A DNA stretch of 17,390 nucleotides from a virus, in UHGV virus genome UHGV-0137727, one strand, 5' to 3'. Below, one piece after another: positions 3,098-7,798 of the stretch; within the stretch, counting starts at the first letter, position 1; every line of letters starts with the position of its first letter. A program made the translations under genes and the position numbers. The notes under the pieces were generated by a model. It did not search any database, had not been told where the DNA came from, and saw only the letters and a list, made by a program, of their open reading frames with translations.

Positions 3098-3298
3098 ATG
3101 TTCGACAGAATACGGGAGGCGTGCGCGTATGTGACTGGGGCCGTAACTGCTTTTTTCGGCGCGATAACCATCAATGATATTGCCGTCTTTGTGGGTATCT
3201 TATCAACCGTAGGCACATTTGCCGTTAACTATTACTTCAAATCACAGGAGAACAAGCGGGCGCAAGAGGAACACGACGCGCGAATGGGGAATAAGTAA
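3098..3298 (+). CDS. holin, class II / pinholin-like (66 aa, two TMDs)
   Basis: SD GGAGG 7 nt before ATG. Two hydrophobic helices and a charged C-terminal tail (KSQENKRAQEEHDARMGNK). Immediately precedes the endolysin start (TAAATG). Pairing with a SAR endolysin is typical of pinholins. Confidence 0.7.
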   Translation: MFDRIREACAYVTGAVTAFFGAITINDIAVFVGILSTVGTFAVNYYFKSQENKRAQEEHDARMGNK

Positions 3299-3787
3299 AT
3301 GATTAGCCAATCGCTGAAAAACAAGATTGTTGCGGCGGCTGGTGGGGCGATCGCTATTGCGGCGGTGATGATAAAAGATCTTGAAGGCGTTGAGTATAAG
3401 CCATACAGAGATGTCATCGGTGTTTACACGATATGTTATGGACACGTCGGAAAAGACATCATGCTTGGTAAGACTTACACGCAATCAGAATGCGATGCTT
3501 TATTAAATAAAGATCTACACAAGACCGCAAAAGCGATTGACCCATATATCAAAGTCGAAATATCAGATTTTACCCGCGCAGCACTTTATTCATTCGCCTA
3601 TAACGTAGGCGCTACCAACTTCAAAACATCAACCTTACTAAAACTACTCAATGACGGCAAGAAATCAGAAGCGTGCGCACAGCTTAAACGCTGGGTATAC
3701 GCTGGCGGTAAGAAGTGGCAAGGCCTGGTAAACCGCCGCGAGGTTGAATATGCCGTTTGCGAATGGGGGGAAACGTGGACAAGGTGA
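3299..3787 (+). CDS. SAR endolysin (glycoside hydrolase family 24 lysozyme with N-terminal signal-anchor-release domain)
   Basis: N-terminal Gly/Ala-rich weak [19 protein letters not shown]. Catalytic spacing E29-x8-D38-x5-T44 ([23 protein letters not shown]) is characteristic of T4-type lysozymes. From memory the protein closely resembles the phage P21 R21 SAR endolysin. Confidence 0.9.
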
Positions 3788-4245
3788 AGGCGTTAATTAT
3801 CGCCGCTGTTGTTTGCATTATTGCCGGACTGACCGCCGTAACATGTTATTACCAGGGTGAGGCGGCAAGGTTACAGGAAGAAGTCACGGTAACGAAAGGC
3901 GCACTGAAAACGGCAAGTAACACTATTCAGCAGATGAAGGAGCGAAACGCCGAACTGTCAAAACTTGATAAGAGGTATCACGATGAGATTAAAGCTATCA
4001 GATCTGACATTGCCGATCTGCGCACTGGCATTGATAACGGCACTATCAGGCTGCGCGTCAACGCAATACCCGTGCGAGTGTCCGACTCCGCCGAATCCGC
4101 CAGCCGCATTGATGGAGCCTCCTGTAGACTCACTCCCGACGCTGAATCGGCTTATCTATCCCTCAGAGAACAACTAAAAACGAAAGACGCTCAGATTACT
4201 GGTCTTCAGGACTACATCAAAACTCAGTGCTTACGCAAAGAATAA
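3757..4245 (+). CDS. Rz: i-spanin (Rz-like)
   Basis: Sits directly after the endolysin. N-terminal [24 protein letters not shown] followed by a charged, coiled-coil-like periplasmic domain. Contains an embedded lipoprotein gene in the +1 frame. The exact start (ATG 3757/3763 or GTG 3775/3784) is uncertain. Confidence 0.75.
3983..4177 (+). CDS. Rz1: o-spanin (Rz1-like outer-membrane lipoprotein), embedded in Rz in the +1 frame
   Basis: ATG 3983 with SD AGAGGT 6 nt upstream. Signal peptide [23 protein letters not shown] with lipobox LSGC. Proline-rich mature part ([18 protein letters not shown]). Lies wholly inside the Rz ORF. Confidence 0.75.
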   Translation: MRLKLSDLTLPICALALITALSGCASTQYPCECPTPPNPPAALMEPPVDSLPTLNRLIYPSENN

Positions 4246-4523
4246 CAGCGCGTGGACGTGTCGCCGTTTCTGCCAGCCAGCCATAACCAGGCCAATCCTT
4301 CCCGCGAGCGACGGCGGAAATTCAAAAACACGTAATACCGGATCAACAGTCCCATTAACAGGTCAGGCGCTACCTGGGTAGAAGAAAGCGCCACCCACCT
4401 ATTTTATAAAATTCTGAAAACGGTACTCATGCAGCGCCGTTTTTAGTGTTTTATAGCTGTTTTCACTCCCTGCGGTGTCGAGTTTTGCGGGGGTTATATT
4501 TTTCAGAATAGGAGATTATTCTG

Positions 4524-5066
4524 ATGGCTAAGGCTAAAGGCATTAAGTTGCCTCACTTCAAGATCCCGCTTTTTGAGCATACCACTGTTTTCTTTTGCCC
4601 GACCCGCGAGATGTTCTATGAATTTTGCGAAAAGGCAGGAATTCCGATTGAACCTGATTTCGAGTTGGCTGGAGGATTAACGCTTACTTGCACTGGCGAG
4701 AATGGTGGTAACTTCTACGTGATCGCAGTATTCAACAATGAGTTGGGAACGCTGGTCCATGAATGCGCCCACACTACATTCCACGTTTTAAGTGATGTAG
4801 GCGTCGTGGCTACCACGGATCCTACCCATCCGGCGAATGAGACTTACGCTTACATGGTAGACCGTATCTTCGATGCGTTTTTCCCTATCATAGCAGAATC
4901 AAACGAAGCACAGGTTGCAGCAATGCAGGCGGCAGAAGTCGTCGATCAGGCGCTGGAACAGGCAGAACAGCCGAAGGAAGAGGAAAAACCCGCGAAGAAA
5001 GGCAAACGTAAGCCCAAAGCAAAAGAAGCGTATGTGCCGCGCGTAATGAGCTTTAAACGAGGCTGA
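4524..5066 (+). CDS. putative zinc-metallopeptidase-like protein (HExxH motif) with lysine-rich basic C-terminal tail
   Basis: ORF-track ORF with SD AGGAG 9 nt upstream. Motif LVHECAHTTFH (H79-E-x-x-H83) with a downstream Glu (ANETYAY) as candidate third ligand. C-terminus EEEKPAKKGKRKPKAKEAYVPR. Family not identified. Confidence 0.65.
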   Translation: MAKAKGIKLPHFKIPLFEHTTVFFCPTREMFYEFCEKAGIPIEPDFELAGGLTLTCTGENGGNFYVIAVFNNELGTLVHECAHTTFHVLSDVGVVATTDPTHPANETYAYMVDRIFDAFFPIIAESNEAQVAAMQAAEVVDQALEQAEQPKEEEKPAKKGKRKPKAKEAYVPRVMSFKRG

Positions 5067-5068
5067 TT

Positions 5069-5158
5069 ATGATTGCGTCAATATTAACGTTTATGGGTGG
5101 CGTGGCGTTCGGATTCATTATTTGCCTGTTTATGGTGATTATGTCTATGCGAGGCTGA
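5069..5158 (+). CDS. micro-ORF 1 of hydrophobic peptide array (29 aa)
   Basis: MIASILTFMGGVAFGFIICLFMVIMSMRG*. SD GAGG 7 nt upstream. The junction GAGGCTGATTATG is duplicated at the next ORF. Confidence 0.4.
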   Translation: MIASILTFMGGVAFGFIICLFMVIMSMRG

Positions 5159-5160
5159 TT

Positions 5161-5256
5161 ATGGACGCTTACATCATCGCCGGATTAATTGGTATTTCTG
5201 TATTTCTGGTGAGTTTTGTTATTGCCGTACTGATAACCGTAAAAAGCAAGTATTAG
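5161..5256 (+). CDS. micro-ORF 2 of hydrophobic peptide array (31 aa)
   Basis: MDAYIIAGLIGISVFLVSFVIAVLITVKSKY*. SD GAGG 6 nt upstream. Single hydrophobic helix with basic C-terminus. Confidence 0.4.
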   Translation: MDAYIIAGLIGISVFLVSFVIAVLITVKSKY

Positions 5257-5269
5257 ATGGGGTGGCAAG

Positions 5270-5344
5270 ATGATTGACCCGCTAATTATCCTTTCTGCCT
5301 GCGTCGCTGTATGGCTGGCGATCATGATATTCATTGAAAGCTGA
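5270..5344 (+). CDS. micro-ORF 3 of hydrophobic peptide array (24 aa)
   Basis: MIDPLIILSACVAVWLAIMIFIES*. G-rich SD-like sequence GGGGTGG upstream. Confidence 0.35.
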   Translation: MIDPLIILSACVAVWLAIMIFIES

Positions 5345-5437
5345 AGGTATTCACCATAAATATTTACGATCTCATCTGGTGGTCGTTGGTCGCCGTCATT
5401 ATCTATTTCTGGTGGAAGAATGTTGTATAGGTGAAGC

Positions 5438-5518
5438 ATGAACGCATACGAAATGCTATTGCTGGTGGCTGTTATTACAGTTATTGCCGTAGATGTTTAT
5501 CGGGAGTTTAAAAAATGA
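5438..5518 (+). CDS. micro-ORF 4 of hydrophobic peptide array (26 aa)
   Basis: MNAYEMLLLVAVITVIAVDVYREFKK*. Upstream AGGTGAAGC-ATGAACGC is repeated at micro-ORF 6. Stop overlaps the next start (ATGA). Confidence 0.4.
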   Translation: MNAYEMLLLVAVITVIAVDVYREFKK

Positions 5519-5583
5519 AATGGCTTGATTTCTTTTTCCTGGTCGTTGCGATTGTTCTCACTATGACCGCGCTTGCTCAATAG
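5515..5583 (+). CDS. micro-ORF 5 of hydrophobic peptide array (22 aa)
   Basis: MKWLDFFFLVVAIVLTMTALAQ*. SD GGGAG upstream. Start overlaps the stop of micro-ORF 4. Confidence 0.4.
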   Translation: MKWLDFFFLVVAIVLTMTALAQ

Positions 5584-5591
5584 GTGAAAGC

Positions 5592-5666
5592 ATGAACGCT
5601 ATTGATATTATGTTGATCGTGTGTACCGTTGCATTAGTTATTATTGGGGTGATTATCAATGTCTGA
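5592..5666 (+). CDS. micro-ORF 6 of hydrophobic peptide array (24 aa)
   Basis: MNAIDIMLIVCTVALVIIGVIINV*. Upstream TAGGTGAAAGC-ATGAACGC repeats the context of micro-ORF 4; both begin MNA. Confidence 0.4.
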   Translation: MNAIDIMLIVCTVALVIIGVIINV

Positions 5667-5727
5667 TGGTGATTTCTTAATCATGGCTATATGCACGCTG
5701 TTAACTGTTATTGTTTTCTTCGCGTAA
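5659..5727 (+). CDS. micro-ORF 7 of hydrophobic peptide array (22 aa)
   Basis: MSDGDFLIMAICTLLTVIVFFA*. SD GGGGTG 8 nt upstream. Overlaps the end of micro-ORF 6 by 8 nt. Confidence 0.3.
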   Translation: MSDGDFLIMAICTLLTVIVFFA

Positions 5728-5736
5728 AGGTAAACA

Positions 5737-5820
5737 ATGAAAGAATTATTCGATTGGTTGGAAGTATTAACATACTGCGCAAGTTTTGTGGCTTGCGTAT
5801 ATATCATCAATAAATATTGA
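5737..5820 (+). CDS. micro-ORF 8 of hydrophobic peptide array (27 aa)
   Basis: MKELFDWLEVLTYCASFVACVYIINKY*. SD AAAGGT 5 nt upstream. Ends 11 nt before the terminase small subunit start. Confidence 0.4.
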   Translation: MKELFDWLEVLTYCASFVACVYIINKY

Positions 5821-5831
5821 GAGGTGAGATT

Positions 5832-6317
5832 ATGGCCCGCACTAAAAAGGCAAATGCTGACGATAAAAAGCCAGCCGCCAAAAAGGTGGGCCGTCCGCAT
5901 GGCTATACCGAAGAAAAGGCATTAGAGATCTGTGAGCTGGTGGCGGACGGTCAAAGCGTTAACAAAATTTCGAAAATGCCAGGTATGCCAACACGTTCGA
6001 CAATCCTTAAGTGGTTCCGTGATGTGCCGGAATTTTCGGACATGTACATGCGCGCGAAGGAAATAGGTTTTGAGGTATTAGCCGATGAGATCATCGATAT
6101 AGCTGATGCAGCGGAGAATATTGATAAAGATGAATTGCGCCGCCATCAACTGATGATTGAAACGCGCAAATGGTTACTGGCAAAACTGCAACCGCGCAAA
6201 TATGGAGAACGCGTCACACAGGAGATTGTCGGCAATAGGGAGGAGGCGCCAGTACAGGTGGAAGTAACGAAAGAAGAGATCGCCCGCATCGTCCAGGAAG
6301 TAGAAGATGAGGTGTGA
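5832..6317 (+). CDS. terS: terminase small subunit
   Basis: ATG 5832 with SD GAGGTGAG (track ORF begins at TTG 5817 in the same frame). Basic N-terminus, HTH-like segment (SVNKISKMPGMPTRSTILKWFRD), and the LLAKLQPRKYGER motif I associate with small terminase subunits. Sits directly upstream of the large subunit with overlapping stop/start. Confidence 0.75.
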   Translation: MARTKKANADDKKPAAKKVGRPHGYTEEKALEICELVADGQSVNKISKMPGMPTRSTILKWFRDVPEFSDMYMRAKEIGFEVLADEIIDIADAAENIDKDELRRHQLMIETRKWLLAKLQPRKYGERVTQEIVGNREEAPVQVEVTKEEIARIVQEVEDEV

Positions 6318-6319
6318 TT

Positions 6320-7798
6320 ATGTTGACAATCAAAGAACGAGTTATTCAATCCAAATGTGAAAAAGATGGCCTGTTTTTCAATCGCTATTTCTATAAGCAA
6401 GCGAACGGAACGAAGATGTTAATCTCAGGCCATCATTTAGCCATCCGCGATGCACTGCAACGCGTTATTAAAGGTGAGATAACCCGACTCATCATTAACA
6501 TCCCCCCAGGGTACGGCAAAACCATGATTGCCACTATCAATATGATGGCCCGGTCCCTCGCAATAAATCCCCGCACAAGATTCCTTCACGTTTCCTATTC
6601 CAACAACCTGGCGCTACTCAACTCCTCGACTGTAAGGAACATGATCTGTACGCCTGACTATCAGGCGATGTGGCCCATGAAGATCCGCAACGATGCCAAC
6701 AGTAAATCGATGTGGTGGACTGAATACGGCGGCGGCGTGTATGCAACGTCATCACTTGGTCAGGTGACCGGGTTCCGTGCGGGGTACATGGAATCAGGAT
6801 TTAATGGCGCGTTAATCATCGACGACCCATTAAAACCCGCTGACGCTTACTCTGACGTGGTGAGAAAGCAGGTGAACACCAACTATAACGATACGCTTGC
6901 ATCGCGTCTGGCAGTGCAAACAACGCCTGTTATCGTCATCATGCAGCGCATCCACTACGATGATTTGTCCGGCTACCTGTTACGCGGCGGCAGTGGTGAA
7001 AAGTGGTATCACCTTAACCTGCCAGTGAAGATCGACAACAGCCTGGATTATTGGGATCTGTACCCTGAAAACGAGTTCGCCATTCCTATCGCTCACAACC
7101 TGCCGGACGGCTGGCTATGGCCTAAAAAACACAATGACACCCATGAAGCCGGACTGAAGGCGCACAGACGGTCATTTGAAGCCCAGTACATGCAGCGCCC
7201 GCGTAAATTCGACGAAGAAGGCGCATTGTGGACTGAAGCAATGATAACCGCAGCACACCGAATGCAGATAACGCAGGAGAAAATCCGCACTGTGATAGCC
7301 ATTGACCCGGCGACAACATCATCTGATGAGTCGGACGAAACGGGGATCATGGCATGTTCCGCTTATGGTGGTGGCAAGAATGCTCAGTATTCTGTTGATG
7401 GCGACTATTCAGGCCGTATGTCACCTAACGACTGGGCGCAGGCATCAATGAACGCCTACAACATCCATGAAGCTGACGCGATGGTTATCGAAACCAACCA
7501 GGGTGGTGATATGGCAGAGGCCACACTACGCAATGCCGGATTCAAAGGCCGCATTGTTAAGGTGCACGCAAGTAAAGGTAAATTCGCCCGCGCTGAACCA
7601 ATATCGGCACTGTATGCACAAGGAAGGGTGGCACACACTGGTGAGCTATACACGCTGGAAAATCAAATGATGGAATACGTGCCAGCTACCGCCAAAAAAT
7701 CCCCTGACCGTATGGACGCAATGGTATGGGGTATCACCGAACTAAGCCAGCCACAGGCAATGGGCCTTATGTTACCTAAGCGCCTGCGAGGGTTTTAA
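6320..7798 (+). CDS. terL: terminase large subunit (ATPase plus nuclease)
   Basis: ATG 6320 with SD GAGGTG 7 nt upstream (track start GTG 6314). Walker A-like PPGYGKTM, Walker B-like ALIIDDPLKP, and a C-terminal nuclease-like segment (VIAIDPATTSSDESDETGIMA). 493 aa, canonically placed before the portal. Confidence 0.9.
   Translation: MLTIKERVIQSKCEKDGLFFNRYFYKQANGTKMLISGHHLAIRDALQRVIKGEITRLIINIPPGYGKTMIATINMMARSLAINPRTRFLHVSYSNNLALLNSSTVRNMICTPDYQAMWPMKIRNDANSKSMWWTEYGGGVYATSSLGQVTGFRAGYMESGFNGALIIDDPLKPADAYSDVVRKQVNTNYNDTLASRLAVQTTPVIVIMQRIHYDDLSGYLLRGGSGEKWYHLNLPVKIDNSLDYWDLYPENEFAIPIAHNLPDGWLWPKKHNDTHEAGLKAHRRSFEAQYMQRPRKFDEEGALWTEAMITAAHRMQITQEKIRTVIAIDPATTSSDESDETGIMACSAYGGGKNAQYSVDGDYSGRMSPNDWAQASMNAYNIHEADAMVIETNQGGDMAEATLRNAGFKGRIVKVHASKGKFARAEPISALYAQGRVAHTGELYTLENQMMEYVPATAKKSPDRMDAMVWGITELSQPQAMGLMLPKRLRGF

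Follow-up and report, generated by a model that had tools for sequence, protein, structure and literature searches.

An orphan family of small HExxH...E phage proteins, and a member with a basic C-terminal tail at a lysis-packaging junction

What could a temperate phage do with a small HExxH protein encoded between its lysis and its packaging genes? The question is raised by the open reading frame (ORF) at positions 4524-5066 (+ strand) of the virus genome UHGV-0137727, of which we analyzed a stretch of 17,390 nucleotides (hereafter, the window). A preliminary description of this ORF, made from the letters of the DNA, had noted a minimal zincin signature and a low-complexity C-terminus in the product, and had left it without a family. 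The ORF is a real gene. It has an ATG start with the sequence AGGAGA 8 nt upstream, encodes a protein of 180 residues (20.0 kDa, pI 5.5) identical to the product quoted in that description, and is the homologue of mEp021_49, which is annotated as "hypothetical protein". The reading that we favor, and to which we give roughly even credence, is that of a late, cytoplasmic, zinc-dependent peptidase-like accessory protein belonging to an orphan minimal HExxH...E family, with the form of this clade tethered via a spacer and a basic anchor. The parts of the gene on which this reading is built are the following (AF2, AlphaFold2; pLDDT, predicted local distance difference test).

4524..5066, + strand: coding sequence, homologue of mEp021_49, PHROG 1365 (translation, ribosome-binding site, and profile match)
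4524..4898, + strand: catalytic-type domain, residues 1-125, the sole part common to the whole family (AF2 model of residues 1-127)
4758..4772, + strand: HECAH, with H79, E80, and H83 as proposed zinc ligands and general base (invariant in 146 homologues)
4836..4853, + strand: NETYAY, residues 105-110, with E106 as proposed third zinc ligand and Y110 one helical turn on (conservation and AF2 model)
4899..4973, + strand: acidic Ala/Gln/Glu-rich helical spacer, residues 126-150 (helix reaches residue 148 in the full-length model)
4974..5063, + strand: basic disordered tail, residues 151-180 (pLDDT below 50 at residues 152-179)

A conserved HExxH...E site

An alignment of 146 homologues that are 20-60% identical to our protein, with column identity averaging 15%, has only four invariant columns, H79, E80, H83, and E106; G51 and Y110 are conserved in at least 90% of the sequences. 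The motif HExxH is found in 146 of 149 distant homologues, and among the three others two are fragments or frameshifted sequences and one has HKxxH. Hence, the minimal zincin signature noted initially is meaningful and goes beyond chance. The Glu of ANETYAY, put forward in the preliminary description as a candidate third ligand, is borne out as well, because E106 is the sole invariant column besides those of HExxH and because H87, the alternative third ligand, is not conserved (it is Tyr or Phe in most family members). At the sequence level, such conservation is typical of His-His-Glu ("gluzincin") zinc sites. An invariant Glu next to two His marks a zincin site as catalytic rather than structural.

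The structure prediction is in line with such a site. The AF2 model of residues 1-127 has a pLDDT of 88.2 and a predicted template modeling score of 0.83, and the model of the full-length protein (pLDDT of 78.5) has a folded head, a long helix (104-148), and the disordered tail. The model predicts two strands (11-13 and 21-25), two helices (28-38 and 44-48), two further strands (51-57 and 63-69), and then helices 74-91 and 104-126. HExxH lies inside helix 74-91, which thus carries both H79 and H83, and E106 is at the N-terminus of the next helix, which starts at residue 104. The element order of a minimal gluzincin is sheet, backing helix, active-site helix, and glutamate helix, and the modeled domain appears to follow the same order. 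The ligand logic is also shared with the thermolysin-type gluzincins and minigluzincins, i.e., two His and a downstream Glu preceded by Asn; thermolysin carries the motif NExxSD. However, our protein has no detectable sequence or fold similarity to these enzymes, its domain is far smaller than those of M4 and M13, and a weak match to M48 was found in only one of the 146 homologues. A Foldseek search of the PDB with the domain model gave a best E-value of 0.11 and template modeling scores of at most 0.36. Known zincins were not retrieved by the fold searches, which gave no fold match to any solved structure.

A phage-borne orphan family

We searched for relatives of the protein with an exhaustive profile search covering 1.84 billion representatives. 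It retrieved at least 243 clusters at E-values of 1e-3 or lower, nearly all of them stand-alone proteins of 110-140 residues matching residues ~1-125 of ours. The median length in the family is 124 residues, and the 150 best homologues span 67-201. A word-indexed search gave around 120 near-identical proteins from Escherichia coli prophages and two diverged homologues, P0118 (60% identity) and P0121 (47%). The one positive family assignment is PHROG 1365, of unknown function (E-value of 1.8e-31, 109.8 bits, residues 1-131 against profile positions 3-124 of 127).

The family includes proteins of well-studied phages. Orf-129 of the Salmonella phages ST64T and L (46% identity) and HkcC of HK620 (37% identity) have HExxH and NExxxY in common with our protein and are both annotated as "unknown". 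Orf-129 occupies the same slot as our gene, between the lysis cassette and the small terminase gene, whereas HkcC is in the immI region and not beside the terminase genes. Proteins of these two types have 121-129 residues, with neither the acidic helix nor the basic tail of ours. P22 also has an intact member of 125 residues, with HECAH and NETYCY, which is unannotated in the reference third-party annotation record (BK000583, 13849-14226; locus L174, 1489-1866, + strand). It sits between the sieA promoter and the mnt terminator. Some P22-like phages have two copies of the family. P22 has the HkcC-type copy only.

The preliminary description had listed SprT-like, ImmA/IrrE, DUF4157, and Wss1/WLM domains as candidate assignments, and none of them was found at threshold in Pfam. 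The scan of the 146 members was done at E-values of up to 1 and kept the top 25 families. SprT-like (PF10263) is the only recurrent weak Pfam signal, with sub-threshold matches in 38 of the 146 members (best E-value of 1e-4). Against the family consensus sequences it scores 12-14 bits (best 14.2) over 17 residues around HExxH, below the gathering threshold of 25.6 bits, and membership was rejected. SprT-like proteases, Spartan, and Wss1 are small HExxH domains too, and several of them combine the protease with a DNA-binding region. In our family, in contrast, the invariant third residue is a Glu 23 residues past H83, and there is neither a conserved third His nor a zinc-ribbon. Spartan, Wss1, and other SprT-like proteases were not listed in the PDB sequence or fold searches.

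Other candidates were rejected on similar grounds. DUF4157 and WLM/Wss1 gave no Pfam match for the protein and were not among the top families of the 146 members. ImmA/IrrE (Peptidase_M78, PF06114) are likewise small HExxH proteins of temperate elements, but there was no Pfam match, and our gene is in a putative late operon behind terminator-like hairpins, with lysis and terminase genes as neighbors and no adjacent helix-turn-helix repressor. MPTase-PolyVal (PF18818), the C-terminal domain of ArdC, left our protein unmatched at E-values of up to 10 and was not among the top 25 families matched by the 146 members. ArdC is a mobile-element zincin coupled to a nucleic-acid-binding part, a concept that our protein may share by analogy; unlike ArdC, it has no ArdC-N domain and stands alone instead of being embedded in a polyvalent protein. 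Finally, PF18894 (PhageMetallopep) is also a phage HExxH protein encoded just upstream of terminase genes, but it is not detectably homologous. Besides the lack of a Pfam match, the hhalign probability against 13 PF18894 neighbors of family members was 1.7%, in the HExxH region only.

The remaining database signals are weak, and all of them point to zinc peptidases. The family profile matched among PDB sequences only myroilysin (E-value of 0.086), peptidyl-Lys metalloendopeptidase, and BMP1/tolloid, with E-values of up to 1.6, i.e., at chance level, and a PDB search with the single sequence gave only chance-level zincin matches. Two homologues from metagenome-assembled genomes bear the source names "PolyVal Metallopeptidase superfamily domain" (P0118) and "SprT-like family protein". 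PADLOC assigned no family to our protein or to two of three homologues, the third having only a chance-level match (E-value of 0.05). Overall, the family is phage-borne and orphan: it has no Pfam, NCBIfam, or PADLOC model, no characterized member, and no solved relative.

One might thus ask if the protein is a protease at all. The metal could serve another chemistry, that of another hydrolase or of a peptide-modifying enzyme, or a structural role, or else the protein could act as a stoichiometric binder or decoy. This would fit with the lack of a fold match to any solved peptidase and of a peptidase family model at threshold. It would also fit with the weak matches of 22 of the 146 members to TIGR04267, a family of HExxH-type peptide hydroxylases (best E-value of 0.0045), which indicate that the HExxH motif alone does not define the chemistry. 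Yet these matches are only motif-length and our protein is far below the cut-off (11.7 bits vs 40), the invariant E80 beside two His is a catalytic zincin signature, and the weak PDB profile matches are all to peptidases. We regard a role other than proteolysis as unlikely.

The C-terminal spacer and basic tail

Our protein continues well beyond the common domain and ends in EQPKEEEKPAKKGKRKPKAKEAYVPRVMSFKRG. The preliminary description had reported an acidic-then-basic low-complexity tail, and this feature is real and under selection. The domain (residues 1-125) has a net charge of -9 and a pI of 5.0. The spacer (126-150) has five acidic and no basic residues, and the last 24 residues have ten Lys or Arg against one Asp or Glu, for a net charge of +9 and a pI of 11.2. 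Among 17 distinct alleles of 180 residues, the ratio of nonsynonymous to synonymous substitution rates (dN/dS) is 0.065 in the domain, 0.068 in the spacer, and 0.118 in the tail, i.e., all three are under purifying selection. Drift thus does not account for the tail, which is a functional peptide under constraint. It ends in a conserved peptide, K-x-K-A-K-E-x-x-V-P-R-V/I-x-x-F/Y-K-R-G, which is kept in P0118 and P0121. The spacer is polymorphic in length, with insertions of 10 or 14 residues (e.g., EKATDEAEQAVEQE) resulting in alleles of 180, 190, and 194 residues, and the flanking domain and tail stay conserved (loci L022-L056).

The long acidic and basic form is specific to the clade: an extension of at least 30 residues beyond the Glu helix is present in only 13 of the 146 members. 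Short basic C-termini are over-represented in the family, since the last 12 residues have a net charge of +3 or more in 31 of the 146 members and of -3 or less in eight. Extensions with a charged helix and a basic end resembling this one were found in the remote members P0143, P0210, P0217, P0238, and P0262. A tblastn search with the tail alone, made with the low-complexity filter on, gave no match outside of the clade.

Genomic context of the gene and its family

The DNA of the region is 86-89% identical to that of phages mEp021, mEp044, and MagusPhagus. The window is therefore from a temperate coliphage of the mEpimmI group, which includes mEp021 (PMC11893012). Its genes around the ORF are arranged as follows, with the portal and head genes further downstream, past that of the large terminase subunit.

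3098-3298, upstream of the gene: holin
3299-3787, upstream of the gene: endolysin
3757-4245, upstream of the gene: Rz-like spanin
5817-6317, downstream of the gene: small terminase subunit (TerS)
6314-7798, downstream of the gene: large terminase subunit (TerL)

The gene is thus between lysis and packaging genes, as initially described, but it is not just upstream of the latter, since 750 bp of mini-ORFs separate it from TerS. A scan of the window with Rfam gave no match.

To place this locus within the family, we clustered at 80% identity the family proteins of 170 loci fetched from IMG/VR and other sources, resulting in 21 clusters. In 19 of them, the gene follows the lysis cassette and is 0.45-2.3 kb upstream of TerL, with TerS in between. 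This could point to a role in packaging and not to a generic accessory gene. The clusters near the terminase span at least five TerS and two TerL PHROG families, and in seven of them the stop codon of the gene is 3-11 nt from the start of TerS. Distant members in Burkholderia phages and in phages with ParB cassettes are 2.5-4 kb upstream of TerL. Together with the net charge of the tail, these positions would suit a DNA-tethered protease associated with packaging, a functional analogue of Spartan and Wss1, with a tail binding concatemeric DNA or TerS and a head clearing DNA-bound proteins or processing a packaging factor.

However, phage genomes are mosaic, and lambdoid and P22-like genomes have a single fixed slot at the junction of lysis and terminase genes, which makes this synteny weak evidence. 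In addition, the family is found elsewhere. HkcC-type copies are between ejection gene 16 and the tailspike gene (the immI region of P22 and HK620), ORF49 of the Ralstonia Autographivirus RSB3 comes after the maturase and lysozyme genes at the right end of the genome, and no + strand terminase was found within 5 kb of P0133 and P0217. P22 packages normally with an HkcC-type copy only, most members of the family have no tail, and in the window itself the mini-ORFs lie between the gene and TerS. The varied slots and the lack of a partner gene indicate a mobile accessory gene favoring module junctions rather than an integral component of packaging, and we hold a role in packaging to be improbable. 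A conserved partner gene was ruled out, since the flanking proteins of 395, 387, and 297 residues in distant loci are mutually unrelated.

The position behind the lysis genes suggests another possibility. The polybasic stretch of the tail and the hydrophobic residues after it (KKGKRKPKAKEAYVPRVMSF) might anchor the enzyme on the anionic inner membrane, where it would act on a membrane protein, such as a regulator of lysis, a membrane protein of the host, or the neighboring mini-peptides. In mEpimmI and P22-like phages the gene is directly after the holin-endolysin-spanin cassette, in RSB3 it is after the lysozyme gene, and in mEpimmI phages it is followed by the array of mini-ORFs, which encode single hydrophobic helices. 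Polybasic stretches with hydrophobic residues are a known mode of membrane binding, and by analogy the composition of the tail would fit it. Yet no amphipathic helix is predicted, the tail being disordered in the model, the clade of P0121 keeps the tail without having the mini-ORF array, the core family is tail-less, and a lysis phenotype is known for no member. A membrane-proximal, lysis-linked protease seems to us even less probable than one involved in packaging.

Remote members of the family have other neighbors. Some adjoin a dNMP kinase gene or are near a weak Lar restriction-alleviation match two genes upstream (L178, 4022-4387), and in one locus a Tad2-like gene (PF11195; L175, 4729-5004) overlaps the start of the HExxH gene. 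The Tad2-like and weak Lar-like neighbors suggest an anti-defense setting for these remote members, as judged from gene content. In P0139, P0143, and P0238, which are remote forms with a long tail, the HExxH gene is in a conserved cassette, after two ParB_N genes and an ABC-like ATPase and before a gene for a ~297-residue protein. Such ParB cassettes sometimes also have a thioredoxin, and the one in L175 has the Tad2-like gene. A search of IMG/VR with P0139 and P0151 returned no loci.

Some prophages have, 4 nt past the family gene, a gene encoding a 212-residue PF18894 protein (E-value of 4e-43), then one for a DUF2280 protein in the position of TerS, and then TerL. A prophage of Burkholderia ambifaria has the family gene and a PF18894 gene within 3 kb. 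The window has no PF18894 gene. Its positions in the other loci are:

L101, 4346-4984: PF18894 PhageMetallopep neighbor (also in L113, L116, and others)
L179, 8122-8775: PF18894 PhageMetallopep neighbor

Other genes are found in the same slot in other phages. In ST64T, Orf-134 (L003, 3890-4294), directly after Orf-129, matches the head-decoration family phrog_3018 with an E-value of 9e-59, as in L-type phages, and a DUF2560 protein is encoded upstream of Orf-129 in ST64T and L-type phages. Several accessory genes that are not related to one another thus use the lysis-terminase slot.

Upstream RNA structure and expression

A gap of 279 bp follows the Rz gene. The fold of positions 4395-4525 has an energy of -41.1 kcal/mol, corresponding to a z-score of -4.27 relative to 200 shuffles, and comprises three hairpins predicted by RNA folding.

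4404..4456, + strand: long terminator-like hairpin in the gap from Rz to the gene
4467..4493, + strand: second hairpin, G+C-rich, then a U-rich run, terminator-like
4503..4524, + strand: small hairpin with the Shine-Dalgarno sequence AGGAGA (4510-4515), reaching the start codon

In the mEp021 record, a terminator (TERM_6) is annotated at the corresponding site. We found no sigma-70-like promoter between Rz and the ATG of the gene. With two terminator-like hairpins and no detectable promoter, we infer that the gene would be expressed only from the late transcript, by Q-antiterminated read-through. The proteins of the mEp021 virion have been identified by mass spectrometry (PMC11893012), and mEp021_49 is not annotated among them. 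A role as a virion protein was thus rejected for lack of support.

Proposed function

From these observations we infer metal binding, proteolysis, the function of the tether, when the protein is made, and what kind of substrate it has. H79 and H83, separated by one turn of helix 74-91, would bind a single metal ion together with E106, and E80 would be the general base activating a water molecule. Y110, one turn past E106 (i to i+4) and so probably on the same helical face, is a candidate stabilizer of the reaction intermediate. An extended substrate peptide may bind along the preceding beta-hairpin (strands 51-57 and 63-69), our candidate for the edge strand. The spacer and the polybasic peptide may act as a tether concentrating the enzyme on a polyanionic surface, with DNA or RNA as our first choice of target and the inner membrane as the second; a partner protein is also possible. 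The acidic domain would suit a cytoplasmic location, as would the lack of a signal peptide or membrane-spanning stretch on inspection of the sequence. The enzyme would be made only from the late transcript, alongside the lysis and packaging proteins, and its substrate would most likely be a protein of the host or the phage that has to be removed for the benefit of late infection. We consider host takeover or counter-defense a more likely role than virion assembly.

Several results weigh against the reading of the protein as a late accessory peptidase. Pfam has no model matched by it even at E-values of up to 10, and scans of the protein, the 146 homologues, and two consensus sequences with Pfam, NCBIfam, and PADLOC gave nothing at threshold. 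A search for functional literature, biochemical or genetic, on any member of the family found none. The tail is absent from most members, so its partner is not needed for the core activity. The recurrent position upstream of TerS and TerL described above, in 19 of the 21 clusters, belongs here as well.

A bolder version of the proposal is that of a late, polyanion-tethered mini-protease removing DNA-bound or packaging-sensing host proteins (e.g., those of a defense sensing the terminase or portal) as the terminase starts, with the whole family forming a new class of counter-defense or takeover proteins. This is a long shot in our view. If true, phages would have their own version of DNA-dependent proteases, with a zincin-like fold that has no solved relative, and the new enzyme class would span the whole family of ~120-residue proteins, including the unannotated gene of P22.

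That phages have small HExxH ORFs is in itself no surprise, and if the protein were inactive or dispensable it would be merely another small accessory ORF. If it is an active protease, it would be among the smallest zincin-type enzymes, with ~120 residues and no curated model. The family is carried by many temperate phages that infect Enterobacterales and by at least some that infect Burkholderia and Ralstonia, including paradigm phages such as P22, L, ST64T, and HK620. Knowing the substrate would thus give a function to a recurrent "hypothetical protein" of the lysis-packaging junction, and could reveal a mechanism of takeover or counter-defense. The succession of head, spacer, and basic anchor in mEpimmI phages would also be a natural experiment on enzyme localization.

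Mini-ORFs downstream of the gene

The region between the gene and TerS (5069-5820, + strand) is a tandem array of seven to eight tightly packed mini-ORFs of 22-31 residues, each encoding one hydrophobic, membrane-helix-like peptide. Seven such mini-ORFs were counted on the + strand and none on the - strand, whereas 500 shuffles gave a mean of 0.66 and a maximum of four. The array has a GC content of 0.39, compared with 0.46 in the window. Among 52 mEpimmI-type loci, 49 have 2-12 mini-ORFs at this place (at least six in all but two loci), for a total of 186 distinct peptides, and these are unannotated in most records.

The first mini-ORF, MIASILTFMGGVAFGFIICLFMVIMSMRG (5055-5163), is 88-96% identical in DNA to an unannotated gap in the genomes of virulent rV5-like Vequintavirus phages. 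The identity is 94-96% in FV3, V5, and close relatives, the gap of FV3 being at JQ031132 96600-96695 (L173, 1200-1295), and the FV3-type gap encodes a near-identical peptide, MIMIASILTFMGGVAVGFIICLFIVIMSMRG. Around 75 phage records match only this stretch of 100 bp. The comparison of these sequences points to a mini-gene that has recently moved horizontally between phages unrelated to each other.

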